Positions 3,592 to 31,306 of a DNA stretch of 31,306 nucleotides are shown piece by piece. A program made the position numbers and the translations under genes. The notes under the pieces are model-generated. The model saw nothing but the letters and a program-made list of their open reading frames with translations, was not told the origin of the DNA and searched no databases. The DNA is taken from the IMG/VR virus record IMGVR_UViG_2585427737_000015. The stretch is one strand, 5' to 3'. Each line of letters starts with the position of its first letter. The stretch's first letter is position 1. Source of the stretch: a virus (Duplodnaviria; Heunggongvirae; Uroviricota; Caudoviricetes).

Positions 3592-6036
3592 TTAACCGTC
3601 ATGCATCATGCTGGCACGGGCGCGCGCACGTTTATCCCGCTCGTATTTTTCGAGCGCATCCTGTAACTGGCGGTCGAGCTGTATCCCCGGCGTAGTACCG
3701 CCCGTCAGGCTGATGTGATATTCGTTTTTACTCTGGTCCACATAAGAGCGGCCAGCCGGTGCCGTAACCGGCTGATAAGCCTGATAGCCTGCATAAGAGC
3801 TGGTCGCCGGAATATAACCACCGCTGCCATACGTGGCGGCTTGAGTTCTGGCGGCGGTCTGGTCAAGTGTGTCTGACTCTTTGTTGATAACACCGAGTTT
3901 TTCCAGTACCCAGTCAATTCCGCTGCGCAGTTTGTTGAACGCATTAAGCGGCAGCATCAGCGCGTCAGCCAGTGCCTGCCCGAACATGACGCCAGTATCA
4001 CGGCAACGGTTCAGGGTGTCCTGGGTGGCTTTGACCGGGGCAATCAGGTTTTTAAACCACTGCCACGCGGCCTGTAACTTTTCGCCCAGCCAGTCAAACA
4101 CCGGCTTAAGTGGCGTGAACAGTTCCCCCACCGGCGCAAATGCCGCTTTCAGCCCTTCCATCACACCGCCAAAGAATGCGCTGACAGGCTCCCAGTATTT
4201 ACGGATAAGCAACGCCCCGGCGACAATGGCGGCCACCACGGCCACAACCGGCCAGCTAATCGCCCCGATGGCGGTCATAACAGCACTGCCAACCGTCGTG
4301 AAGACTGCCCCCATTGCGCCTGCTGCCGCGATGATGGCATTGATGCCAGTGATAACCGGCCAGGCTACAAGACCAATGGCACCGATGATGCCAATAAGCG
4401 CCAGCGCGCCACCGACAATGAGGCCGATGGTTGACGCCAGTGATTTGTTTTTCTGGATCCAGCCGTCGAGTTTTAACACATACTTTGTGGCCGTCTGCGT
4501 GAGCTTACGCAGTGCGCCTTCCTGCTGGTCAAACAGGTCAGTCCCCACCGCTTCATAAGCGGACTGAAACTCCTTAAAGTCACCGCCGAGGTTGTCCTGC
4601 ATGATTTTAACCAGCTCTTCCGTTTTACCGTCTGAGGCTTTCAGTGTAGCGGTCAGTTTGTCCAGCTTTCCGGTTGAGGCGGCAGTCATCAGCACGGCGG
4701 CGGCTGAACTGGCCTCCTCCCCGAAAATGGTTTTCATATATTCAGCCTTCTGAGACGTTCCCAGCTTGTGTTTATCAAAGCTGGCCTGAATCTCTTTCAG
4801 AATGGTGAACAACGGACGCATATTTCCCTTTTTGTCCGAGGTTTTAACGCCAAGCTCTTTGAGTGCATCCCATGCTTTTCCAGTCGGTGCCTGTAATCGG
4901 GTGACAACGGCACTGCCTCCCGTACCCGCCATTGACCCCCTAATTTTTGTCATGCAGCGCACCTGTCATGGCCGCTGCCTGTTCAAGACTTACACCTGCC
5001 GTCCTCGCAACCGGACCGAGGTAAGTCAGTGCATCACTGAGTCCCTGAAAATCAGCCGCCGACTTATTCATCGTTGCCGACAACACGTCGCCCACATGGC
5101 TGACATCATCATTTGAAAGCTGAAAGGCGGATTTCATCCCCAGCAACAGGGCGCGTTTTCTTCCATCGTGCGATGATTCGCCAGTGCCATATTCAGCGTG
5201 ACCGGCGTTGCCGCCTGAATAGCCGCAGCATCTCCACCCGCTTTCGCAATGATAATCTGCGCACCGGCCGCATCATCCGCTGAGGCGGCGGTATTGTCGC
5301 CGAGCTGGCGCGCCTGTTTGCGGAGCGCGGCCATTTCGGCGGAATCTTTTGCCACACCGAGCACGGCCTGCAATTCTGAGTTTTTCTGCGCAAACTCATA
5401 ACCGGGCATCAGCAGCTTAACTCCGGCCATCGTTCCCGCCGCCGCAATCCCCACACCGGCAGCGCCCACTGAGGCCATATTTCCGGCAAGTTCTTTTCCT
5501 GCCTGATAACGCTGTTTGACTGCGTTAAGTTTTGCCTGTTGTGCACTGACACGCGCCAGCGCGTCACGCTGCCGGTTAAGCTGTGCGGTGGTTTCACTGA
5601 TACGGTTTTTCAGTCCCTGCTCATCATGTGCAAGATTGCGGGTATTAATTCCCACAACGGCCAGTTCCCGCTGCTGGCGTTTAACGGAATCCGTCAGGCG
5701 GTTATATTTCGCCTGTAAGTCCTCCGCCGCACGCTTCGCGGATTCCAGCACTTTCGCCTGAGCACGTGTCGGACGTTCGGTGTTTTTAAACTGTGTGGCA
5801 AGGGCTTCGGCCTCCTGCCGTGCCTTTTCAAGTGCATGACCAGTCACGGCGAGCTGTGCGCTGGTCTTGCGAAATCCCTCAATACGGGATGCGTGACCGT
5901 TCAGCTCGCGCAGTGATTTTTGTGTTTCCCGGATATCCCCCGACAGCGATTTGCTCGCTGTGCGGATGGATTTAAACGGGCGGGATGCCTGGTCAACAGC
6001 CCTGAGCAATACCTGTAATTTTACATTGTTACTCAT
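3592..6036 (-). pseudogene. T: Tail tape-measure gene T, 815-codon span, interrupted by two compensating frameshifts
   Basis: Three abutting minus-strand ORFs: 5134..6036 (300 aa), 4940..5146 (68 aa, other frame), 3592..4962 (456 aa, back in the first frame). All three read as tape-measure sequence (Ala/Gly-rich hydrophobic core). Frame changes sit at a C-run (plus-strand GGG 5149-5151) and an A5 run (plus-strand TTTTT 4944-4948). Confidence 0.8.
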
Positions 6037-7043: not shown

Positions 7044-8234
7044 TTAATTGCTGTTAACCGAAGTGACCAGATTTGCCAGGTATTTATCGGTAATACGCTG
7101 GCGCAGGGTCAGGTTTTCGAGAGGAGGCACCGGTGTATAGTCGTAGTCGATATACAGTTTTCCGGCCTTGAGGGTTTCCGCATCGTTGGATTCTTCGCTG
7201 AACCAGCAGGTCGCATCCACGATATAGCCGTTTGTTTTCAGCTCACGGAATTTGGCATTGATGCCGTCAACGATGTCGCGAATCAGCGTTGCGGTGATGG
7301 GCTTGTCCACCGCCCACATGTGCGCCTCAGCCATCGTGTCGGCCAGCACCTGCGCGGTGCGGGTGTAGTTTTCAAAGAGGAACAGCGGGTCATCAGAGCA
7401 GGTACGGTTACCCCAGAAGCGGAAACCGTCACGGCGAATCAGCGTTGTGACGCCTGACTCATTCAGCAGGTCAGCATCGGTGCCGGACTCCTGCAAATCC
7501 CAGAATACAGATGCGCTGATGCCGGTAACACCGTTCACCCCGACGTTGGACAGCGTTTTATGCCAGCCCTGCTCCTGGTCGATTCTGGCACGCAGACCCA
7601 GCGCACGGGCGGTGGCATACGCGGTGGCGGTGGTACTGGCAACCGTATCCCATGCGAGGAAATCCGGCCAGATGACCATCAGCTCACGCTGGCTGAAATT
7701 CTGACGGTAGGCTTTCACCTCGGAAATGGTCTTACAGCCCCATGCGCTGATATATCCGAAAGCGCGCAGCTTCTGACAGACTGATGCCAGTGCAACAGCC
7801 ACCTCTTTGGTATCCAGCCCCGGCACACCAAGAATACGCGGTTTAACACCGGTTACCGACTCCGCCGCCAGCAGGGCTTTCAGTCCGGTGTACTGACCGT
7901 TTTCGTCAGTGGTGCCGATGATATTGGAAACGGTCTGCGCGAGTTTCGTTTCTTCGTCGTCGCCGGTGCCGTCTTCCACACGCACGACAACGGTGACCGG
8001 TTTTGACTGGTCAGCGATGGCCTGCAACGACGCCGCCAGCGTGCCTTTTTTACCGGCCTTTGCAATTGCGCTCTGCACATTGGTAATCAGCACAGGTTTA
8101 TTGAGGGGAAAGGTTTCCGCATCCGCATCGCTGGCCGTGCAGACCATGCCGACAATGGCAGTGGATACGGTGGAAATGACGCGGGTGCCGTCGTTAATCT
8201 CCAGCACCTGCACGCCGTGATGATAGTCACTCAT
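7044..8234 (-). CDS. FI: Contractile tail sheath protein gpFI (396 aa)
   Basis: ORF track; P2 length and position. Confidence 0.88.
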   Translation of the reverse strand: MSDYHHGVQVLEINDGTRVISTVSTAIVGMVCTASDADAETFPLNKPVLITNVQSAIAKAGKKGTLAASLQAIADQSKPVTVVVRVEDGTGDDEETKLAQTVSNIIGTTDENGQYTGLKALLAAESVTGVKPRILGVPGLDTKEVAVALASVCQKLRAFGYISAWGCKTISEVKAYRQNFSQRELMVIWPDFLAWDTVASTTATAYATARALGLRARIDQEQGWHKTLSNVGVNGVTGISASVFWDLQESGTDADLLNESGVTTLIRRDGFRFWGNRTCSDDPLFLFENYTRTAQVLADTMAEAHMWAVDKPITATLIRDIVDGINAKFRELKTNGYIVDATCWFSEESNDAETLKAGKLYIDYDYTPVPPLENLTLRQRITDKYLANLVTSVNSN

Positions 8235-8339
8235 CCGTTTAACTCCGTGGTTAATGGGTGCAACTATTTTCTGTTGTGCAGAGCATGAGACGCTATTTGA
8301 CCTGGCTGGTCAGGGGATGAAACAACAGATAAAGAAAAT

Positions 8340-8356
8340 GCGGGCAATTCGCCCGC
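8340..8356 (-). terminator. Candidate rho-independent terminator between the cargo protease gene and FI
   Basis: Hairpin GCGGGC-GAATT-GCCCGC (8340-8356) followed on the minus strand by a U-rich tract (plus-strand AAAGAAAAT 8331-8339). Confidence 0.35.
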
Positions 8357-8831
8357 CTGTCCTGATTTGTACTCACTCATTTTCCGCCTGACAATTTACA
8401 TAGCCCAAATGCTATCAAATCTGACAGTCTGCTTTGAGCGAAGAGCGGACTTGAGACTATTGTAAATGAAAACCATATAATTTTAACCGGCAGAAACACA
8501 TGAGTAATTTTAAGGCTAATTAGTTATCTGGGAGATGAGGGGCAAAGCACGATATCGTACACCAATGGAATAAGCTTATGATTAATATAAATATAAAAGG
8601 CAGAAAGCCTTCCTCAAAATGGCTTGAATCGGGTGCATCTGTCTGCGAAACGATTTTTTAGACGTTTTTATCGCTTTCAGTTCAGTTTTCCCCTCGAATC
8701 CAAGTGACAAAGCCGATTTAGTTTTCACACATCCGTACAATGTGCATCCCTCGATGAGCCTTTTCAGGCAAAGTTACGGGGATGCTTGATTCATTTAAAC
8801 TGAGTTAGTACAACTTAATTAATAATATCAT

Positions 8832-9824
8832 TTATGCTAGAGTTGAATATTCTCCATTTCCTCGGTCGGTGAGTGTTAATTCGCGGCCATTTTCTGTAAA
8901 TGTAATGGCATCCAGCAGGCTTTTTCCTGTTACAGCTATACCATATCCAAGGTTATCAATCTTTGAACTGTCCTCAGATGATATTGGTATTTGTACAAGC
9001 ATACCAACAACAAAGCCGTATTTGTTAATTATAGGGCCACCGCTATTCCCCCCCTTAACCCTAGCATTGAATAATAAAAAGTCTTGTGAATCTAAGTAAG
9101 AGTGACCAGAACCAACAATTCGCCCCTTTGACAGTCGGACAAACGAATTTATATGCGAAACGTCATATAACTTTAATGCATCAAATCCTGGAATGGGTGG
9201 AAATCCTATTGATAAAATTTCATCCAGTACCGAGGCTTTGGTTGAGACCTTAAGTGGTTGAATATTATCTTCATTCGGAATGGTTGTGAAAACTAAAGCG
9301 ATATCAATACGTTCATCGTTAGATACAAAGATTTTATGTATTGGTAAAGCCTCACCACCAGCTCTAAGTATCCTGATACTCTTCATGTCTTCAATAACAT
9401 GTCTGGCTGTAAATATCGTGTGGTTATTCCCAACAATAAAACTAGTACCAAGATCATGTGAACCATCACTTTTTTCAACAACAACAGGTAAAACGGAAGG
9501 ACTAAGGCGGTCTATGATTGACTCAAATCCATCAGCTATAAAATCATACTTTCCATATTTCGCATCTGATTCATTGAAATTCGGTGCGAAATAGCAACGG
9601 TCCAAAAGAGTATGTCCTGAAGATAATTCCATTAAAATACCTTCAGTTGCTAGCTTTTCACAATTGCGTATTAACTTCATCATATCGAGAGTATTTTCCC
9701 ACTCAGGTTTGAGACGGGTCAGGCTCTCAATTGTTTTTCTCTCTTTTACGTTATCGTTTTCCGGTTTGTCATAAAAATATTTCACTATTTCTGTTGGTGT
9801 TACATATGTTTTTTTTATAGTCAT
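8832..9824 (-). CDS. Cargo gene at the P2 Z/fun locus: N-terminal domain of unknown function fused to a trypsin-like (chymotrypsin-fold, S1/Trypsin_2-type) serine protease domain; 330 aa from ATG, 348 aa if the upstream GTG is used
   Basis: ORF 8832..9878. Motifs GTSFIVGNNHTIFTARHV (His160), ERIDIALVF (Asp192), VKGGNSGGPI (Ser279), track numbering, with triad spacing typical of DegP-like proteases. No Shine-Dalgarno before the GTG at 9878; a weak one before the ATG at 9824. AT-rich relative to the flanking phage genes. Confidence 0.7.
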   Translation of the reverse strand: MTIKKTYVTPTEIVKYFYDKPENDNVKERKTIESLTRLKPEWENTLDMMKLIRNCEKLATEGILMELSSGHTLLDRCYFAPNFNESDAKYGKYDFIADGFESIIDRLSPSVLPVVVEKSDGSHDLGTSFIVGNNHTIFTARHVIEDMKSIRILRAGGEALPIHKIFVSNDERIDIALVFTTIPNEDNIQPLKVSTKASVLDEILSIGFPPIPGFDALKLYDVSHINSFVRLSKGRIVGSGHSYLDSQDFLLFNARVKGGNSGGPIINKYGFVVGMLVQIPISSEDSSKIDNLGYGIAVTGKSLLDAITFTENGRELTLTDRGNGEYSTLA

Positions 9825-10217
9825 TTTTGTACCCGCGATGACGTTATTCCATATATTTTTCTTTGTAGAAAATATCACTATTGCTGGTAAATGTTAAGTT
9901 CAGTGCTCGCACTAAAGCTGGATGATCAACGTCGCCCTCGTATGGAAATCAGGTAAGATTCATGTCTACTTGGGGTCTAGGGTAGACAGCATAAAAACGT
10001 ACGATAGCGTTCGATTGGCTCTCCCCCCCGCCTATAAACCATGAGGTTGATAGGGTAGTATCGTTAGGCAATAGTATACATGTAAGTATCCAACCTAATT
10101 GGTCTTGAGATTTCTAACTAACGTGTCGTTATGTCCGCTCCTGGCACAGAGCGGACTGTCAGATTAGGCTTTACTCTGTTCTATAGGTATGTAAGCTCAC
10201 ACAAGAGTTCATACAAC

Positions 10218-10745
10218 TTATTGCGGCATTTCCGGCCATTCAGGATTTGCAGGATCCACACGACTGATCAGAACGCTGTAGCGTTCCCATGATTCCAGTC
10301 GGCTACGCTCCTCATCTGTTGCCATGTTCAGTCTGACCGCGCGCTCCAGCGGCAAAATCACGGATTCAGCATCTGCAAGAAGTCTGGCTTTCCGAATTTC
10401 TGCCTGCTGCTGTAATTCCTCTGCCGTATAAATGCGTTTAATCACTTTGCCGTCCTTAAACATCCAGTTCCCTGAAATGTCCGCCCGTCGGTTAGCAGTA
10501 ATATCCGCCACTTCAACAACACTTAATCCATCCGGTCTGATAGCTGTCACATCCTTTTCCACATAGTGGATGATATTATCTTTGTCGTACGCTATTTTTA
10601 TCGTGTCATCAGCAAAATACTTTTGTTCTTCGTACCAGTTCTTACCATCTTCTGAAAAAAACCAGACAACATCAAAGTCCTTTGTCAATTGATATTGTTC
10701 AACCGTTTTTGGATTACCCGCCGTAATATTTTTTAAATGCTGCAT
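10218..10745 (-). CDS. G: Tail fibre assembly protein gpG (175 aa)
   Basis: ORF track; P2 length; directly downstream of H. Confidence 0.8.
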
Positions 10746-15507: not shown

Positions 15508-16293
15508 ATGGTCAGCTATAATGTGACTAATGTGTGGGGGCTAATCGTTTTTTTCCTTTGTAGCTTTGCAGTATTAGCATTTTTTAGCTTTGGTAAAAGT
15601 AACCTTATGAGGCTTATTGCACATTATTTCAATTTTGGATATTCAGACAAAAAATTAAAAAGACTTGACCGCGAGTGGCGCGACATTCAACTATTTAAAA
15701 TAATTAACGGAATCAATGTATCAGGCATTGAAAATGTGAGAATGATACAGCAGGGACTGATTGATGGAAAACTAAAAACATCGTATTTTTTCCTTACTCG
15801 CATCTGGGGTGACATAACAAAACCACCACACATAATTAAAACAACAATTGTAATTCTGGCCAGTATTATTTATATTCTCTTCGCATGTTATATACACAAC
15901 AAACAATCCGCTATAGTAAGAGATGCCATAGGCATACCATATAAAAATATGATGTACTATGTTTATAGTGACAAAGTTCTTTTATCCTTCAAAAATAAAG
16001 CAGTTGAATTTAATAAAACTTATAGCCTTGCCGATTGCAAGAGACTGCAAAACGTATTTATAAAAGACACACTTCCTGAAATCGCCTGCAATAAGCTCTT
16101 ACAGCTAAACGAGGAGGACTCCGAATGGTTAAGCCAGGAGATTAAAGATAATAACAGTCACAAAAAAGCATTATTAATACTATCCCTCGTCTATTTCACT
16201 TCAGGTCTGGTTATATTCCTGTCATATACAAAATTCTTTTACGCCAATAAGAAGGTTTTAGAATACAAAGCATCAAATAAAAATCACTCATAA
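15508..16293 (+). CDS. Cargo gene at the P2 orf30 locus: AT-rich predicted integral membrane protein (261 aa, about 3 transmembrane segments), function unknown
   Basis: ORF track; Shine-Dalgarno AGGAG 8 nt before the ATG; hydrophobic stretches at about residues 9-29, 113-133 and 221-241; opposite strand to the flanking late genes; low G+C by eye. Confidence 0.65.
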   Translation: MVSYNVTNVWGLIVFFLCSFAVLAFFSFGKSNLMRLIAHYFNFGYSDKKLKRLDREWRDIQLFKIINGINVSGIENVRMIQQGLIDGKLKTSYFFLTRIWGDITKPPHIIKTTIVILASIIYILFACYIHNKQSAIVRDAIGIPYKNMMYYVYSDKVLLSFKNKAVEFNKTYSLADCKRLQNVFIKDTLPEIACNKLLQLNEEDSEWLSQEIKDNNSHKKALLILSLVYFTSGLVIFLSYTKFFYANKKVLEYKASNKNHS

Positions 16294-24511: not shown

Positions 24512-25545
24512 TGAGCAAGAAAAAAGGGAAAACACCGCAACCTGCGGCAAAAACAATGACCGCCAGCGCCCCGAAAATGGAAGCATTCACCTTTGGTGAG
24601 CCGGTGCCGGTACTCGACCGCCGTGACATTCTGGATTACGTCGAGTGCATCAGTAACGGCAGATGGTATGAGCCACCGATCAGCTTTACCGGTCTGGCAA
24701 AAAGCCTGCGTGCTGCCGTGCATCACAGCTCACCGATTTACGTTAAACGCAATATTCTGGCCTCGACATTTATCCCGCATCCGTGGCTTTCCCAGCAGGA
24801 TTTCAGCCGCTTTGTGCTGGATTTTCTGGTGTTCGGTAATGCGTTTCTGGAAAAGCGTTACAGTACCACCGGTAAGGTCATCAGACTGGAAACCTCACCG
24901 GCAAAATATCCCCGCCGTGGCGTGGAGGAGGATGTTTACTGGTGGGTGCCGTCCTTCAACGAGCCGACACCTTTCACGCCCGGCTCCGTGTTTCATCTGC
25001 TGGAGCCGGATATTAATCAGGAGCTGTACGGCCTGCCGGAATATCTCAGCGCCCTTAACTCTGCCTGGCTGAATGAGTCAGCCACGCTGTTCCGCCGCAA
25101 GTATTACGAAAACGGCGCACATGCCGGATACATCATGTACGTCACTGATGCCGTGCAGGATCGCAACGATATCGAAATGCTCCGCGAAAACATGGTGAAG
25201 TCGAAAGGCCGCAACAACTTTAAAAATCTGTTTCTCTATGCCCCGCAAGGGAAAGCCGACGGCATTAAAATTATCCCGCTCAGTGAAGTGGCAACGAAGG
25301 ACGATTTTTTTAATATCAAAAAAGCCAGCGCCGCAGACCTGCTGGACGCGCACCGCATCCCTTTTCAGTTGATGGGCGGCAAGCCGGAGAACGTCGGGTC
25401 GCTGGGTGATATTGAGAAAGTGGCAAAGGTCTTTGTCCGCAATGAGCTTATCCCGTTACAGGACAGGATCCGCGAGATAAACGGCTGGCTCGGTCAGGAG
25501 GTCATCCGCTTTAAAAACTACTCACTGGACACTGACAACGGCTGA
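24511..25545 (+). CDS. Q: Portal protein gpQ (344 aa)
   Basis: ORF track; P2 length; TGATG overlap with the P stop. Confidence 0.88.
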   Translation: MSKKKGKTPQPAAKTMTASAPKMEAFTFGEPVPVLDRRDILDYVECISNGRWYEPPISFTGLAKSLRAAVHHSSPIYVKRNILASTFIPHPWLSQQDFSRFVLDFLVFGNAFLEKRYSTTGKVIRLETSPAKYPRRGVEEDVYWWVPSFNEPTPFTPGSVFHLLEPDINQELYGLPEYLSALNSAWLNESATLFRRKYYENGAHAGYIMYVTDAVQDRNDIEMLRENMVKSKGRNNFKNLFLYAPQGKADGIKIIPLSEVATKDDFFNIKKASAADLLDAHRIPFQLMGGKPENVGSLGDIEKVAKVFVRNELIPLQDRIREINGWLGQEVIRFKNYSLDTDNG

Positions 25546-25550
25546 ACATC

Positions 25551-25572
25551 GCCGCCTGCGGGCGGCTTTTTT
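25551..25572 (+). terminator. Rho-independent terminator of the P-Q operon
   Basis: GCCGCC-TGCG-GGCGGC hairpin (25551-25566) followed by TTTTTT (25567-25572), 5 nt after the Q stop. Confidence 0.75.
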
Positions 25573-25714
25573 ACCCCCCGTCATCACGCCCTCACACGCT
25601 CACCACCGCACAAAACAGCCCGCAGACACACCAACGCCCCGGCGCACAATCTAAACGCCATCACGACGCGCTCAGACGCTGAAAAAATAAAATCAGCACC
25701 CCCGCCAGCGCGCA

Positions 25715-25733
25715 GTGCTTTCCCCGCCTCGCC
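25715..25733. other. cos site (19-nt cohesive-end sequence), internal to the prophage
   Basis: GTGCTTTCCCCGCCTCGCC is the reverse complement of the P2 cohesive end GGCGAGGCGGGGAAAGCAC as I recall it; correctly placed just beyond Q. Confidence 0.75.
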
Positions 25734-26048
25734 CGCCCGCTTCATGGGGCGGTTTTAATGCAGTTGCATGATGAAACTGAAATCACATCAGCACTGACCG
25801 AAACTGACAAAAAGAATAGTATCTGACACATGCAAAAACACGCACTTAATATACGCCTATCTATAGCTCCTACAGGATTGTCAAAAAACGACCAACTCGT
25901 CATAGCGTAAACACATTTGGCTCAACGAACACTTACGTTATATGCCTCTTGCACATATCAAAGTCTTAAGGTAGATCTTTACCACTAAGTGGCTATATTA
26001 AGCTGCTTTTTTACATACAATAAAAGCTTTATCGTATGAGGCATAAAA

Positions 26049-28265
26049 ATGGAACTTAGATTAAAAAATGTTACCAGTTATAAGAAAGACGCCTTCACAA
26101 TACTGAATCTTGAAAAAAGAGTAAACATACTATACGGCCAAAATGGTTGTGGCAAATCTACCATTTCAAATTATTTCTACGACTCTACACACACAGATTA
26201 TAACGAGTGTGAATGTACCCTTCTTGACAATTACAAACCTCTTGTTTACAACACTAAATTTATTGAAGATAATTTCTACAATGCACAGGAACAAAAAGGT
26301 GTTTTTACATTAAGTAAAGAAAATGCAGATATTGAAAAACAATTAATTAAAAAAGAAGCAATTAAACAGCAACTTACAGAGCAATATAGACAAAAAAAAG
26401 GAGTGTTATTGAAATTAGAAGCAGAAATGGAAAAAAAAGAAAATGAATACATCGAATCGATCTGGAAAAAAACAGAACCAATCAGAAACTCTGTACTAAA
26501 AATCTTAATGAAAGGTAAAGTTGGCTATAAAAGACCTTTTTTTGAGATGATAAAATCATCCTCACCAATCACCTTTATTAATTTAAATGATATAGCAAAA
26601 GAATACTCTATACTATTAGAAAATAGAAACAATGAAACCGCATTAATAACTCCTTTACACCCATATACCCCATCAATTGATGATGTAAATACATTAGCAA
26701 CACCTATAATAGATACAAGCAATAGCTATTTATCAGAAACCATTAATAAACTTCATAATCTTGACTGGGTAAAAAAAGGTAAAGAACATTATTTAGACGG
26801 TTCTACATGTCCGTTTTGTCAGGAAAAAACTATTAGTCGCGAATTTTTAAATGCCCTTAAATCAATATTTGACGAAAGTTATTCAAAGAAAGTAAAACAG
26901 CTCTCAGATATAAAGTCAGTTTATGAGAAAAATACCATATATCATTTTAACGAAATACAAAACAATATATCATCATGTGCACTAATCAATGAGAAAGATA
27001 AAGAGATCATTATTTCCAATATTAAAATATTGCAAAACATTGCAGAAAAAAATTTAATAAACATTATTGATAAGATCAACAATCCATCAACATGCGTTAC
27101 ATTAGAAATTGATAAAGAACTAGAAAATCATGTTCAGGAAAGCATAGACGCTGTTAACAAAAAAATAAGAGACATAAATGATAAGGTTAAAAAACTCAAA
27201 GAGTATGAGAATAAAATCGGAAAACAAGTTTGGGGGGCTCTCCATGCTTTTTGCAGCGATGATTTAGAGAATTTATCCAAACACAAAGAAAAATTCTTTG
27301 ATATCAAAAAGAAAGTTCATGATGAATTAAATAATATTGAGCAACAAGGAAAAGAAAATAATCTCACAATAAAAGCATTGCGAGATAAAATATCTAACAT
27401 TGATTCTACGATAGACTCAATAAACACCCATTTAAAAAATCTAGGGATCTCTGGTTTTTGTATTGAAAAACATGCAGAAAGAAAAGATATGTACATTATA
27501 TCTCGACCAGGGCATACAAAAAACCAAAATGTTTATAGATCTCTTAGCGAAGGTGAAAAAACACTAATAACGTTTCTTTATTTTTTAGAGTGCTGTAAAG
27601 GTAAAACCGATAAAAATGATACCGATAGCAGGGATATTTTTATTGTTATTGACGATCCAATATCTAGTCTATCGCAAAACTATGTCTACGACATCGCATC
27701 AATTATTCATCACCACATTATAAAAAATGAATTAACAAAGAAGGTATTAATCCTTACTCACAATCTTTATTTCTTTCATGAACTTATTAAGCTATCTCCT
27801 AAAAGCAGAGAAGACAAACTATTTAAGAAAAACTATTATCTAGGTAGAGTAACGAAAAATGATTTTAGTATAATTACTGAAATACAAAAAAACAGCATAC
27901 AGAATGAATATCAATCTTTGTGGCAAATATTAAAAGATGCAAAAGATGGCAAAGCAAACAAAATCATAATACCTAATATTATGAGAAACATACTAGAATA
28001 TTATTTTGCATTTGTTCATAGAACAGATGCTCTACAAGATGAATTAACAAAGTTGGCACGCGACGATAGCAACAGTGATTTCAAAGCATTCTACAGATAC
28101 ATTAACAGAGGTTCTCACTCTGATGCGGTAAATATTACTGATATGGGCGACATAGACCCAGATAAATACCTAAAACAATTGAGAACAATATTTTCAGCTA
28201 CTGGTGACGAAATGCATTATTTAAAAATGATGGACGAACTAGAAGAGGAGAACGTTACCGCTTAG
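26049..28265 (+). CDS. Cargo gene at the P2 tin/old locus: 738-aa ABC/SMC-type ATPase with coiled-coil insert and CxxC zinc-hook-like motif plus a C-terminal putative nuclease domain; RloC/PrrC-like (AAA_13-type) candidate anticodon nuclease
   Basis: ORF track; Shine-Dalgarno GAGG before the ATG. Walker A ILYGQNGCGKST (aa 27-38), CPFCQ (aa 254-258) within Lys/Glu-rich coiled-coil sequence, signature-like LSEGEK (499-504), Walker B IFIVIDDP (530-537), LTHN (569-572), and C-terminal R646-x3-E650 ... H690 resembling the PrrC Arg-Glu-His triad. Strongly AT-rich by eye. Confidence 0.6.
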   Translation: MELRLKNVTSYKKDAFTILNLEKRVNILYGQNGCGKSTISNYFYDSTHTDYNECECTLLDNYKPLVYNTKFIEDNFYNAQEQKGVFTLSKENADIEKQLIKKEAIKQQLTEQYRQKKGVLLKLEAEMEKKENEYIESIWKKTEPIRNSVLKILMKGKVGYKRPFFEMIKSSSPITFINLNDIAKEYSILLENRNNETALITPLHPYTPSIDDVNTLATPIIDTSNSYLSETINKLHNLDWVKKGKEHYLDGSTCPFCQEKTISREFLNALKSIFDESYSKKVKQLSDIKSVYEKNTIYHFNEIQNNISSCALINEKDKEIIISNIKILQNIAEKNLINIIDKINNPSTCVTLEIDKELENHVQESIDAVNKKIRDINDKVKKLKEYENKIGKQVWGALHAFCSDDLENLSKHKEKFFDIKKKVHDELNNIEQQGKENNLTIKALRDKISNIDSTIDSINTHLKNLGISGFCIEKHAERKDMYIISRPGHTKNQNVYRSLSEGEKTLITFLYFLECCKGKTDKNDTDSRDIFIVIDDPISSLSQNYVYDIASIIHHHIIKNELTKKVLILTHNLYFFHELIKLSPKSREDKLFKKNYYLGRVTKNDFSIITEIQKNSIQNEYQSLWQILKDAKDGKANKIIIPNIMRNILEYYFAFVHRTDALQDELTKLARDDSNSDFKAFYRYINRGSHSDAVNITDMGDIDPDKYLKQLRTIFSATGDEMHYLKMMDELEEENVTA

Positions 28266-28514
28266 GCCGCATATTATCGTTTTGGGTAAGAACGACGGTG
28301 CTTACGCACCGTCTCCCAACGCCCAAAGCGGTAGCGGTTGTACTGGCGTACATTCACTAGCTTTAACATGAGGCAATCTCCATGCCAGCACTATTGTTGC
28401 CAATAGCAGCCTTTATACCCTTTGTACAAAGCTAATACCAAGAGTAATGCAAAGTAGATGTCCCAAGCGGTAACGGGGCTATTCTATGTCAAACACAGAA
28501 ATAATCAAAGCGCC

Positions 28515-29345
28515 CTATGAATCCCCCCAACCATCAGCGACCGGATACGTGAATTTTTTCCCGTCATAATTTACGGTCGCTCTACGCGCCAGCGCCTCAA
28601 GCTCCCATCGCTGCGGCCTGATACCGTTCTGAGCAAGGTCAACGCGGATACGGGTGATTTGCAATCGTTCAGACCTGGTCAGTCTGGCAGATGGTGCAAT
28701 TTCATGCGGTTTTAACGGGCTTCCGTTTCTTTGCTGACGGTTTGGCGTTCTCAGGTCGTATTTTAATGCGCCCCTGAGCGCCCTCACGACCTCCGGTTCA
28801 TTCCATTCAATAACACCGTCATCAACCAGATTAAGCACTGCTGCGGCGTGCTCAGAAGGTGTGGGAGCCGGTAACGAAGTATCACCACCGGTGAGCTTTC
28901 CACAGTTATTGACAGGACTCCGAGGCGCGGCGATGCCGCTTTTTAAAGTCAAGGGCTCAACGACCGGAACTTTCGGCACAATGCGCCAGTCCGTCGTTCT
29001 GGTGATATGAATATGACGCGCGCCGAGATGCGGCGCGTAAATGCCGACCACTCTCTCGACTTCTTCCTCATACTCGTTAACGTCATCCGACGGGCTACGG
29101 GCGACCCTGACAGTCTGACAATCGCGCGGGACATTTGCCCCACCCTGCGCGCTGATATACAACGCAAAATCACCACTGTCTGCGGCGGCGCGTGCAGCCT
29201 CGACGCGCTCGTCAAACTCATCAGCAATGCTGACGCCGCGAGGCAATTTGCGTAGTTCACGGTAAGCCCCCATTGTCGGCAGACCAACCGTTTTAAATTG
29301 CGGGATGCGCCACGTTGACGCCCATGCGGTAACAGCCGCGGCAGT
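28515..29345 (-). pseudogene. A: C-terminal fragment (about 277 codons) of replication initiation gene A, truncated at its 5' side by the IS element
   Basis: ORF 28515..29360 (...TAAAVTAWASTWRIPQFKTVGLPTMGAYRELRKL...) reads as the C-terminal part of P2 gpA (about 761 aa in P2). No Shine-Dalgarno at the track start; in-frame stop at 29370-29372; the upstream sequence is IS-derived. Junction placed at about 29345, plus or minus 10. Confidence 0.6.
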
Positions 29346-29421
29346 GTTGCGTATTTTCATGAAAGGAGATCACTCAATAACTTCCATCGAGATCGGGTAA
29401 TAACATTTGAACAGATCGCTG

Positions 29422-29485
29422 AATAACATCGATGGAGATCACTTTTGACTCATTTTGTTATTCAGTGATCTCCATCAATGTTATT
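29422..29485. repeat. 22-bp inverted repeats (AATAACATCGATGGAGATCACT at 29422-29443 and its inverse at 29464-29485, one mismatch) with a 20-nt spacer, in the IS left-end region
   Basis: Seen directly; a third degenerate copy at about 29374-29395. Consistent with multiple terminal transposase-binding repeats of IS21-family elements. Confidence 0.5.
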
Positions 29486-29540
29486 GGAACTTCACAGGTG
29501 TGTTGATCTGTATCTTTTGCCATTCCGGTAAAGGATACCT

Positions 29541-31082
29541 ATGCCAACAGTTCCAATTTCTATGAGAAAACTTAAAGAAATTCTTAGGCTTAAATACGGT
29601 GTTGGACTCAGCCATCGACAAATTGGTCGTAGTCTTGCAATCTCCCCTTCCGTTGTATCCAGATATGCTAATCGGGCGGCTCAACTTGGCATAAAGCAGT
29701 GGCCCTTACCTACAGGATGGGATGATACAAAACTAAAACATGCGTTCCTTCAGACCCAGGTTAAGATGAAGAAGCACTCTCTGCCTGACTGGGCTACAGT
29801 ACACCGGGAACTGCGTAATAAATGCGTGACGCTGCAGCTACTCTGGGAAGAATACTGTGAGCGTAATCCAGGCGGTTTTTACAGCTATAACCATTACTGC
29901 CGGATGTACCGTGAATGGCTCAAAACCACTTCACCATCAATGCGTCAGGTACATAAAGCTGGCGAAAAACTTTTCGTTGATTACTGTGGACCTACCGTTG
30001 GCGTTACCGACCCTGAGACCGGAGAAATAAGAACTGCTCAGGTCATCGTAGCTGTTCTCGGGGCATCAAGTTACACATGGGCAGAGGCCACCTGGTCTCA
30101 GCAGCTTGAAGACTGGGTGATGAGTCATGTTCGCTGCTTCCAGTGGTTGGGTGGCGTTCCTGAACTTGTTGTTCCGGACAATCTGAAAAGCGCCACATCC
30201 AGGGCATGTAAGTATGATCCTGACGTTAACCCTACCTACCAGCAGATGCTTGAGCATTATAATGTCGCAGTTTTGCCTGCGCGGCCACGTAAACCGAAAG
30301 ATAAAGCCAAAGCTGAAGTTGGCGTTCAGGTTGTTGAACGCTGGATCATGGCCCGAATCAGGCATGAGATCTTCTACAGCCTTGCATCGCTTAATCAGCG
30401 CATTCGGGAGTTGCTGGAAAGACTGAATAACAAAATAATGCAGAAGTTGGGTTATTCACGTGCAGAACTCTTCATCCAGCTTGATAAACCCGCACTGAAG
30501 CCTCTTCCTGAAGCCAGTTACAGTTACACCCTGGTGAAGAAAGTCAGAGTTCATGCCGATTACCACGTGGAAATCGACAAACATTACTACTCGGTTCCAT
30601 GTTCGCTGTTAGGCCAGCAACTGGAAGCATGGATCTCCGGAGAACTGGTAAGACTCTTCAATCAGGGGCAGGAGGTTGCTGTGCACCCGCGCAAGCGTAC
30701 TTATGGCTACAGTACCCGCAACGAGCACATGCCTGAAGCTCATCGACAGCATGCCACCTGGACGCCAGAGCGTCTTCTGGAATGGGCGGGGCACATAGGC
30801 AGTGAAACTCATAGTTATGTGCTTCATATACTGAACTCTCGTCCACATCCGGAACAAAGCTATCGCTTCTGCCTTGGACTCCTGAACCTTCATAAAAAAT
30901 ACAGTAAAGCCAGACTTAATGCAGCATGTGCAAGAGCTCTGAAAACAAAGGTATGGCGTCTGTCAGGTATTAAATCGATCCTGGAAAAAGGTCTGGATAA
31001 ACAACCTGTTCAGGATCCAAAACCAGATCTGTTATCCACGATGGAACACGAAAACGTACGCGGCAGTGAGTATTACCACTGA
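29541..31082 (+). CDS. istA: IS21-family transposase IstA (513 aa)
   Basis: ORF track; N-terminal helix-turn-helix region, DDE-type core; Shine-Dalgarno AAGGA 7 nt upstream; followed 11 nt later by istB. Confidence 0.8.
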   Translation: MPTVPISMRKLKEILRLKYGVGLSHRQIGRSLAISPSVVSRYANRAAQLGIKQWPLPTGWDDTKLKHAFLQTQVKMKKHSLPDWATVHRELRNKCVTLQLLWEEYCERNPGGFYSYNHYCRMYREWLKTTSPSMRQVHKAGEKLFVDYCGPTVGVTDPETGEIRTAQVIVAVLGASSYTWAEATWSQQLEDWVMSHVRCFQWLGGVPELVVPDNLKSATSRACKYDPDVNPTYQQMLEHYNVAVLPARPRKPKDKAKAEVGVQVVERWIMARIRHEIFYSLASLNQRIRELLERLNNKIMQKLGYSRAELFIQLDKPALKPLPEASYSYTLVKKVRVHADYHVEIDKHYYSVPCSLLGQQLEAWISGELVRLFNQGQEVAVHPRKRTYGYSTRNEHMPEAHRQHATWTPERLLEWAGHIGSETHSYVLHILNSRPHPEQSYRFCLGLLNLHKKYSKARLNAACARALKTKVWRLSGIKSILEKGLDKQPVQDPKPDLLSTMEHENVRGSEYYH

Positions 31083-31093
31083 TACGGGATCCA

Positions 31094-31306
31094 ATGATGA
31101 ATCATCTTTACGAACAACTGACCGCACTTAAACTCACCGGCTTCCGTGATGCGCTTAAAAAGCAACTTGCTCAACCGGGCACATACCAGGAGCTGGGCTT
31201 CGAAGAACGCCTGTCATTACTGACAGCAGAAGAACTAACCTGCCGTGAAAACAGGAAGGCAGAGCGTCTGATCAAACATGCACGGTTCAGACTTAATGCT
31301 GAGTTA
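31094..31306 (+). CDS. istB: IS21-family helper ATPase IstB, 5' partial (first 71 codons, runs off the window)
   Basis: Hand translation MMNHLYEQLTALKLTGFRDALKKQLAQPGTYQELGFEERLSLLTAEELTCRENRKAERL..., a typical IstB N-terminus; no stop before the window end. Confidence 0.65.
   Translation, partial: MMNHLYEQLTALKLTGFRDALKKQLAQPGTYQELGFEERLSLLTAEELTCRENRKAERLIKHARFRLNAEL

Follow-up and report, generated by a model that had tools for sequence, protein, structure and literature searches.

The stretch of DNA analyzed here (31,306 nucleotides, hereafter the window) ends with a piece of a P2-type replication gene A that runs into an insertion sequence, and the question raised by this locus is whether the prophage has lost the function of gene A and, if so, whether the gene was simply interrupted or was lost together with the neighboring early region. 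The preliminary description, made from the sequence alone, had proposed that an IS21-family element truncates gene A and that the prophage, which also shows a frameshifted T gene, is likely cryptic.

Identity and function of the gene A remnant

The piece of gene A is contained in an open reading frame of 281 amino acids (28515-29360, minus strand; Table 1), residues 6 to 281 of which are identical to residues 479 to 754 (276/276) of the intact 754-amino-acid gpA encoded by the yegQ-site prophage of E. coli ETEC-2265 (NZ_CP023346.1). At the DNA level, the remnant showed 0 differences from the ETEC-2265 gpA gene over 833 nt and 98.0% identity to P2 gene A (P2 positions 29466-30295), and its last residues follow the 754-amino-acid ETEC-2265 allele rather than the 761-amino-acid P2 allele. 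The length of 761 amino acids given for P2 gpA in the preliminary description agrees with the P2 annotation (AF063097.1; gene A at 28034-30319, 761 codons). The same description had read the frame as about the last 277 codons of gpA; the comparison gives 276 codons and, in addition, 2 nt of codon 478. At its 5' end, the frame begins with 13 nt of IS sequence (ATG, three further codons and 1 nt), and residue 5 is specified by a hybrid codon that changes D478 to N.

As the 281-amino-acid frame matches no Pfam, NCBIfam or PADLOC family and takes its start codon from the IS, it represents a gpA fragment and not an independent gene, as had been suspected. Judged from its sequence, it is a chance product in which 13 nt of the IS, with a fortuitous start codon, precede the A remnant. 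The chance that the frame is instead a complete functional gene (e.g., one for an origin-binding or interference protein that consists of the C-terminal domain of gpA and is expressed from the end of the IS) is very small. In favor of such a gene, the frame is open, starts with ATG and spans the origin region, but its ATG and the 10 nt that follow belong to the terminal repeat and are present in every ISEc12 copy, the other 276 residues match the interior of an intact 754-amino-acid protein exactly, and the fusion frame occurs in three sister assemblies only. Moreover, no Shine-Dalgarno-like sequence was found upstream of the ATG (TGATCTCCTTTC-ATG) and a scan of the IS end found no promoter-like site facing outward; expression of the fusion frame, lacking both, was rejected.

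In the intact gpA, the Phage_GPA domain (PF05840) covers residues 133-462, and the metal-binding motif PHWHMM and the tyrosine motif GYIAKY start at residues 398 and 449, respectively; all of these are located upstream of the break at 478. The two tyrosines of the latter motif, Y450 and Y454, are those of the active site. Searches of the 281-amino-acid frame with Pfam and NCBIfam profiles gave no hit, and the frame lacks the Phage_GPA catalytic domain with its metal-binding His motif and pair of tyrosines. Compared to P2 gpA, only codons 478-754 are thus present beside the IS, and the Phage_GPA domain and GYIAKY are missing. Conversely, the P2 feature "nick site at ori" (P2 position 29892) falls under the match to the A remnant, and the 50 nt surrounding it are identical to P2. 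Among the relatives of gpA, none has a solved structure.

Because the whole catalytic domain is absent from the remnant and the P2 annotation marks gene A as essential, this copy of gene A is inactivated, which bears out the functional loss proposed earlier. On sequence comparison, the piece next to the IS is a gene fragment and not a functional member of the gpA family, and the prophage, with an essential gene interrupted, should be unable to replicate. The insertion would split gpA into the N-terminal two thirds, with the nuclease domain, PHWHMM and the GYIAKY tyrosines 450/454, and the C-terminal 276 residues, the latter encoded by the stretch of DNA that holds the origin. As gpA is essential for the rolling-circle replication of P2, the prophage would no longer replicate, and the late genes and the cargo genes (i.e., the defense candidates) remain.

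Table 1. Positions of the gene A remnant, the insertion sequence and associated features in the window
Feature	Position	Strand	Remarks
3' remnant of P2-type replication gene A	28515..29347	-	Last 2 nt of codon 478, codons 479-754 and stop
P2 origin of replication	28896..28946	-	Nick at ~28921; inside the A remnant
Predicted 5-bp target site AGTGT	29343..29347	.	Inferred from the 5-bp duplications of other copies
IS-derived 5' end of the 281-amino-acid frame	29348..29360	-	ATG AAA ATA CGC A, in the left inverted repeat
ISEc12 (IS21 family)	29348..31306	+	First 1959 bp of the 2581-bp element; cut by the window/contig end
IS left terminal region	29348..29540	+	Inverted repeat starting TGCGTATT, with repeated GGAGATC(A/G)-type motifs
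istA	29541..31082	+	Intact; 513-amino-acid DDE transposase
istB, 5' part	31097..31306	+	70 of ~248 codons; AAA+ helper ATPase; cut by the contig end

The insertion sequence and its junction with gene A

The part of the IS present in the window differs by 0 to 2 nt over 1959 bp from the ISEc12 copies that we found in P2-like prophages of complete E. coli genomes, i.e., PCP07014 (L001), 51243816-SK1A/NRZ104446 (L002/L019) and GZEC065 (L018); the name ISEc12 rests on the RefSeq label of those copies ("IS21-like element ISEc12 family"). At this level of nucleotide identity, the resemblance cannot be due to chance. Compared to ISEc12 in RefSeq (IstA WP_001298859.1, IstB WP_001016257.1), the left terminus TGCGTATTTTCATGAAAGGAGATCAC and the internal repeats are identical, and nothing in the visible part sets the window copy apart; the last 622 bp, with the bulk of istB and the right terminus, fall outside the window and were found in a sister contig (L013).

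The IstA protein is identical to the "ISEc12 family transposase" as encoded in L001. It matched the IS21 family transposase profile NF033546 with 310 bits (cut-off 160) and contains the Pfam domains rve, at residues 139-252, and Mu-transpos_C_2. The istB gene begins 14 nt after the istA stop; its start matched Pfam IstB_IS21 (PF01695), and the full-length istB of the sister contig matched NF038214 with 268 bits (cut-off 200). The IS21-family gene arrangement, istA followed by istB on one strand, is thus present, and the earlier statement that both genes follow the remnant held, with istA intact and istB cut by the window end. In ISEc12, the IstA DDE transposase acts together with the IstB helper ATPase.

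ISEc12 starts with TG and ends with CA (left TGCGTATT..., right ...AATACGCA, the right end taken from the sister contig and the other copies). Repeats of the GGAGATC(A/G) type are located at 29358-29374 and 29427-29443 and, inverted, at 29464-29485; counted along the element, the left end has GGAGATC motifs at IS positions 18, 87 and 120(-), and the right end has them at 2485, 2536(-) and 2559(-).

When compared to three complete ISEc12 copies with target duplications, the left end of the IS was placed at 29348 (TGCGTATTTTCATG...), where it abuts the A remnant exactly; the preliminary description had correctly seen the IS abutting gene A, at a slightly different position (about 29345). The insertion point is in codon 478 (between nt 1432 and 1433 of gene A), and istAB run antiparallel to the gene. 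The proposed interruption of gene A by an IS21-family element is thus confirmed, the element being ISEc12.

If the genome carried two similar P2-like prophages, the junction could in principle be an assembly artefact, i.e., a chimeric read path joining ISEc12 to one of them, and two features of the contig would fit such an origin: it is a fine-scale patchwork with respect to the two ETEC-2265 prophages, with indels in gene T where the alleles switch, and the broken T reading frame is unique to this assembly. The A-IS fusion frame, on the other hand, is found in three genomes that were assembled separately (JORD, JORE and JORT; GCA_000713025.1, GCA_000713015.1 and GCA_000713335.1), the junction coincides with the outermost nucleotide of the IS (TG...), which is what a real transposition gives, and the flanking 3.8 kb (cargo and A remnant) are 99.8% identical to and colinear with one prophage type only, all of which makes an artefact at this junction very improbable.

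The contig end and the missing 5' part of gene A

The right end of the window is the end of draft contig JORD01000151.1 (123467 bp; L010 range 108209-123467) and lies inside the IS. The truncated appearance of gene A is mainly due to this end of the draft contig, and hence of the window; the "truncation" of the preliminary description is thus a contig end and not an observed deletion, and a right end of this kind is compatible with both the presence and the deletion of the early region.

We consider a simple insertion of ISEc12, i.e., an ordinary disruption in which the beginning of A and the early region are located on another contig, to be the most probable structure (probability of about 0.68). 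In the sister contig, the right end of the IS is followed by the single base "A", with which the expected duplication of AGTGT would begin (chance expectation 1 in 4), and the three ISEc12 insertions in P2-like prophages of complete genomes are simple, with both flanks, an intact early region and 5-bp duplications (CCTGC, CAAAG and CACAT); both observations make a simple insertion more likely. Under this reading, a P2-like prophage located next to yegQ would have received a copy of ISEc12 in its gene A by transposition. The sequence stops in istB only because the short-read contig breaks in this multicopy IS. AGTGT would recur just behind the IS, followed by the 5' part of A, giving the right junction ...CACGGTAATACGCA-AGTGT-CTTTCAGCGGTCTGCC..., with the right end joined to ...AGTGTCTTTCAGCGG (A nt 1437 downwards). 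The other contig would carry 5' A, orf80-83, B, cox, C, int and attL next to yegR; an intact relative has this right-hand structure as far as yegR.

An IS-mediated deletion, a possibility already raised in the preliminary description, or a rearrangement would have removed or moved the 5' part of A together with some or all of the early genes and site (orf80-83, B, cox, C, int and attL), either after the insertion or by recombination between ISEc12 copies, and would make the prophage a true remnant locked in the chromosome. The right flank is out of view, as window and contig end in the IS, and recombination partners are available since ISEc12 is multicopy in E. coli (median 2 and up to 17 places per genome, with a query that included part of A). 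In addition, predicted N-terminal gpA products (A1-479 followed by CVLP, and variants for duplications of 4-8 bp), as well as products truncated by a contig end, with an alternative start or from the second allele, had no exact match in a 15-billion-protein collection that includes the JORD, JORE and JORT assemblies, in which the C-terminal part of A is 100% identical to the allele used for prediction. Such exact-match look-ups, however, fail on a single amino acid difference or an unpredicted contig break, and the prophage is a patchwork of alleles. Breaks in a multicopy IS are moreover normal for short-read assemblies, and in all three sister draft assemblies with the fusion frame the contigs break in or just after the IS. 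With the single base beyond the IS and 3/3 comparable insertions in complete genomes also agreeing with a simple insertion, a deletion seems rather unlikely.

The left junction and the predicted right junction had 0 matches at the DNA level in metagenome and species-representative genome contigs, and the junction was also absent from the complete E. coli RefSeq genomes searched by megablast. For four other gpA alleles, C-terminal fragments fused to the IS or beginning at a contig start likewise had no exact match in the protein collection.

Apart from T, the late genes are intact reading frames that are colinear with those of intact relatives. The T gene is indeed frameshifted in this sequence, as the preliminary description had stated; its use there as a sign of a cryptic prophage carries little weight, as the gene sits at allele-switch points, in a micro-mosaic of two P2-like prophage alleles, and is broken in one assembly only. 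The frameshifts are -2 near position 4950 and -1 near 5152, and they may have arisen during assembly. Both the apparent truncation of A and the T lesion are thus located where short-read drafts are least reliable (i.e., at a multicopy IS and in a genome with two co-resident P2-like prophages), and labeling such a prophage a degraded remnant requires the neighboring contigs or long reads.

Overall, these data point to a P2-like prophage next to yegQ, carrying a PDC-S06/PrrC-like defense candidate, in which a common IS has knocked out the replication initiator and which is probably immobile, yet still supplies its cargo genes. The finding is an ordinary gene disruption by a common E. coli IS and has little significance beyond annotation. 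ISEc12 already has a place in the E. coli literature: a paper on the loss of type VI secretion systems in multidrug-resistant E. coli lineages (PMC10711316) mentions it 15 times. To judge by the title of that paper, the same IS may disrupt chromosomal genes (e.g., for type VI secretion), whereas gene A, the target here, belongs to a prophage and serves its replication.

ISEc12 in other P2-like prophages

The prophages of PCP07014, 51243816-SK1A/NRZ104446 and GZEC065 resemble the one in the window in having ISEc12 in A or the neighboring region; they are otherwise intact, and the hotspot is again occupied by cargo, though by another gene. They differ in showing both flanks and the 5-bp duplications of the IS. 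Their insertion points also differ, being located between the orf83 and orf82 homologues, at approx. codon 176 of A and downstream of A.

A preference of ISEc12 for P2 gene A was not supported, as the IS was within joining distance of A in only 5 of 5426 genomes. The uniform orientation of the copies relative to A did not indicate an orientation preference either, since the search tool joins pieces on the same strand only and the uniformity is an artefact of this. Similarly, a left-flank motif (CGCGGCA..TG) that makes some of the top IS hits similar to the flank in the window was attributed to ascertainment bias, as hits were ranked by alignment length; the L001, L002 and L018 copies, chosen regardless of their flanks, do not carry it.

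In four unrelated draft assemblies (among them GCA_028166525.1 and GCA_047886555.1), with a different gpA allele and the prophage at a different attachment site, the contig ends at A nt 1436, and these ends fall within 1-4 nt of the junction found here. It is conceivable, if doubtful, that gpA codons 478-479 are a recurrent target of ISEc12, or that one insertion has spread by recombination among P2-like prophages. If those contig ends were IS boundaries, the same site would have been hit independently, which would indicate a sequence preference of ISEc12. Such a preference might relate to the near-palindrome ACTGCCGCGGCTGT at the insertion site, and would suggest a repeated "grounding" of P2 prophages that carry defense genes through the loss of A.

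Gene A remnant and its junction with the insertion sequence

The preliminary description had proposed that about the last 277 codons of the replication gene A remain in the window; our comparisons bear this out, with 276 full codons and two bases of codon 478 present. Residues 6 to 281 of the 281-aa ORF were identical (276/276) to residues 479 to 754 of an intact "replication endonuclease" (754 aa), encoded by the yegQ-site prophage in E. coli ETEC-2265 (NZ_CP023346.1), a strain with two P2-like prophages, and residue 5 is a hybrid codon across the junction (D478 to N). At the DNA level, 28515-29347 (833 nt) showed 0 differences from this yegQ-site gpA allele, as compared to 41 differences from gpA of the second, cpxP-site prophage. 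Relative to phage P2, the remnant was 98.0% identical in DNA to P2 29466-30295, within P2 gene A (28034-30319, 761 codons; annotated as essential and as making a site-specific nick at the origin). The ORF is part of gpA rather than an independent gene, as its match lies in the interior of an intact gpA and its start codon comes from the IS.

P2 homology extends to 29347, and the IS left end, as defined against three complete copies of ISEc12 from other genomes, lies at 29348 (beginning TGCGTATTTTCATGAAAGGAGATCAC), so that the join is exact to the base. As the 5' end of the ORF is IS sequence, its "start codon" is an accident of the IS terminus; no ribosome-binding site was found upstream of this ATG (TGATCTCCTTTC), and a promoter scan of the IS end found none facing outward. 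A terminator-like hairpin spans the junction (29337-29351, plus strand; CGCGGCAGTGTTGCG followed by TATTTTCATG) and is probably fortuitous.

Features of the window and ISEc12 copies at other P2-like prophage loci
Feature	Position	Strand	Remarks
Gene T (tape measure)	3592-6036	-	frame lesion from ~5152 to ~4950
Trypsin-like (S1) peptidase, 348 aa	8832-9878	-	hotspot between FI and G
261-aa ORF	15508-16293	+	between V and S, opposite strand, P2 orf30 position
Cargo gene, 738-aa AAA_13 ATPase	26049-28265	+	tin/old hotspot, between Q and A
281-aa ORF	28515-29360	-	A remnant with IS-derived 5' end
ATG AAA ATA CGC A	29348-29360	-	IS-derived 5' end of the ORF
istA, 513 aa	29541-31082	+	NF033546 "IS21 family transposase", 310 bits; Pfam rve and Mu-transpos_C_2
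istB, 5' part (70 codons)	from 31097, ended by window end	+	PF01695
ISEc12 in or next to A, locus L001	8564-11144		5-bp duplication, simple insertion
ISEc12 in or next to A, locus L002 (same as L019)	7673-10253		5-bp duplication, simple insertion
ISEc12 in or next to A, locus L018	4002-6582		5-bp duplication, simple insertion

In intact gpA, the Phage_GPA domain (Pfam; residues 133-462) and the motifs PHWHMM (at 398) and GYIAKYISK (at 449, with tyrosines at 450 and 454; we take Y450 and Y454 to be the catalytic residues) are all located upstream of the break at 478, and a Pfam and NCBIfam profile search with the remnant gave no family match at all. The annotated origin nick of P2 (P2 29892) corresponds to about position 28921, within the remnant, and the 50 nt around it are identical to P2. 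The insertion thus parts the nuclease portion of gpA from both the C-terminal third and the DNA of the origin, and the present copy of gene A is inactive; gpA of P2 acts preferentially in cis. The 281-aa ORF, a gpA fragment that lacks the defining catalytic domain, should thus be annotated as a pseudogene piece, not as a gene.

The element abutting the remnant, described earlier as an IS21-family element with istA and istB, could be named. Its istA product is identical to the RefSeq "IS21-like element ISEc12 family transposase" IstA (NCBIfam cut-off for NF033546, 160 bits), and full-length istB, found in a sister contig, matched NF038214 with 268 bits (cut-off, 200 bits). The left end carries repeated GGAGATC-type motifs, as is typical for IS21-family termini, and every IS21-family character that the window can show is present. 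Because the 1959-bp IS portion of the window showed 0-2 nt differences from other ISEc12 copies, the element is assigned by sequence to ISEc12, a known common E. coli insertion sequence. Each of the three complete copies measures 2581 bp and ends in ...CACGGTAATACGCA; their 5-bp direct target duplications are CCTGC, CAAAG and CACAT.

The contig end and the remainder of the prophage

Gene A had also been described as truncated by the IS. Interruption at codon 478 holds, but the apparent truncation is the end of a draft contig inside the IS. The right end of the window is base 123467, the last base of the 123467-bp contig JORD01000151.1 (draft assembly GCA_000713025.1), on which both the exact 738-aa cargo protein and the exact 281-aa ORF are present. 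The ORF fusing the A remnant to IS bases occurs in three assemblies, i.e., this one and two sister assemblies, in which JORE01000151.1 ends 10 nt past istB and JORT01000136.1 extends to the IS right end plus one base. Each of the three contigs is interrupted within the multicopy IS or at its edge, as is normal for short-read assemblies; that the window lacks the early genes and the 5' part of A therefore says nothing on deletion.

We favor a simple ISEc12 insertion, in which the remaining part of the prophage lies on a separate contig, at a probability of about 0.68. In favor of this reading, the single base that follows the IS in JORT01000136.1, an "A", agrees with the start of the expected AGTGT duplication (chance expectation, 1 in 4), and the other ISEc12 insertions that we found in complete genomes within P2-like prophages were all simple (3/3), with early region and integrase present. 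Three null searches count against simple insertion, or at least not in its favor: exact look-up in a collection of ~15 billion proteins found none of the predicted N-terminal gpA products, the junction DNA had 0 matches in metagenome and species-representative genome collections, and none of the complete RefSeq E. coli genomes carries this A/IS junction. The exact look-ups were weighted lightly because they would miss a product with even one substitution, or one cut by a contig break at an unforeseen place, and the remainder of the prophage is an allele patchwork. Deletion or rearrangement of the locus is regarded as less likely than simple insertion, and artefacts as very improbable.

Allele patchwork, gene T and cargo genes

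When the late region was compared with both ETEC-2265 alleles in 100-200-nt bins, window 1547-25771 resolved into blocks of 0.4-9 kb that are identical by turns to the yegQ-site and to the cpxP-site phage. The yegQ type accounts for the flank at yegQ, for the cargo gene and for A, and the cpxP type for the S1-peptidase, orf30-like and tail-fibre genes; 17.3-20.4 kb differs from both prophages. Two sister contigs break near window-equivalent 15,500, at the orf30-like gene that distinguishes one prophage type from the other.

Gene T is out of frame over ~68 codons, from -1 and -2 indels relative to intact relatives; translated in the alternative frame, this patch gives good tape-measure sequence. 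The indels flank the patch, a hybrid of both ETEC-2265 T alleles with switches on a 10-20-nt scale. Among ~15 billion proteins, the 300-aa N-terminal T ORF made by the lesion was found in a single contig only, as compared to three assemblies for the A/IS fusion ORF. Both real recombination between co-resident prophages and a chimeric short-read consensus (assembly path switching) fit the patchwork and the T pattern, and the T lesion could be such a consensus rather than a real mutation. Although the frameshift noted previously is present in the sequence, under either reading it is weak evidence for prophage decay, its indels lying at allele switches in one assembly. All other late genes are intact ORFs, colinear with intact relatives.

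The cargo ATPase matched the PADLOC candidate system PDC-S06 (E 5e-254), with a PrrC-like C-terminal region (E 1e-12) and a CPFC motif mid-protein; it may be akin to the anticodon nucleases of the RloC/PrrC type. An identical protein appears in 183 blocks of the protein collection, and at least 80% of the 25500-29347 stretch is found in 42 complete E. coli genomes. The S1 peptidase is matched weakly in PADLOC through the protease domain (RT-Protease_XI, LmuA, HamA), and its N-terminus faintly by Pfam CTD12 (ABC-3C); its gene could be an additional cargo gene of the defence type. The 261-aa ORF at the orf30 position, for which no Pfam or PADLOC family was found, is present in the cpxP prophage of ETEC-2265 and absent from its yegQ prophage.

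ISEc12 in other P2-like prophages

Overall, the observation is correct, its interpretation is partly supported and the finding is ordinary; the knock-out of a prophage gene by an IS is well known, and ISEc12 already features in the E. coli literature. Of the three other ISEc12 copies (L001, L002 and L018), one is located between the homologues of orf83 and orf82, one near codon 176 of A and one downstream of this gene; so few cases, from so biased a search, do not justify calling the A region an ISEc12 hotspot.

The only loose end worth noting is that contigs of four unrelated draft assemblies stop at gpA nt 1436 (...CTGAAAGACAC; L021 11436, L022 1596; cluster member P0152), 1-4 nt from the IS junction of the window. 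These contigs carry a different gpA allele, in a prophage at a different attachment site with its early region intact, and include no IS sequence at these ends. The ends may mark a recurrent, same-site ISEc12 insertion; they may also represent a break in coverage or in assembly at the near-palindrome GCCGCGGC, or a coincidence (chance probability of roughly 10%, with ~30 fragments inspected).

In E. coli strain 120899 (CP025916.1), a sister prophage with the same cargo gene has its integrase gene split by a different IS21-family element (locus L003, 17290-20263), which encodes a 340-aa IstA and a 259-aa IstB.
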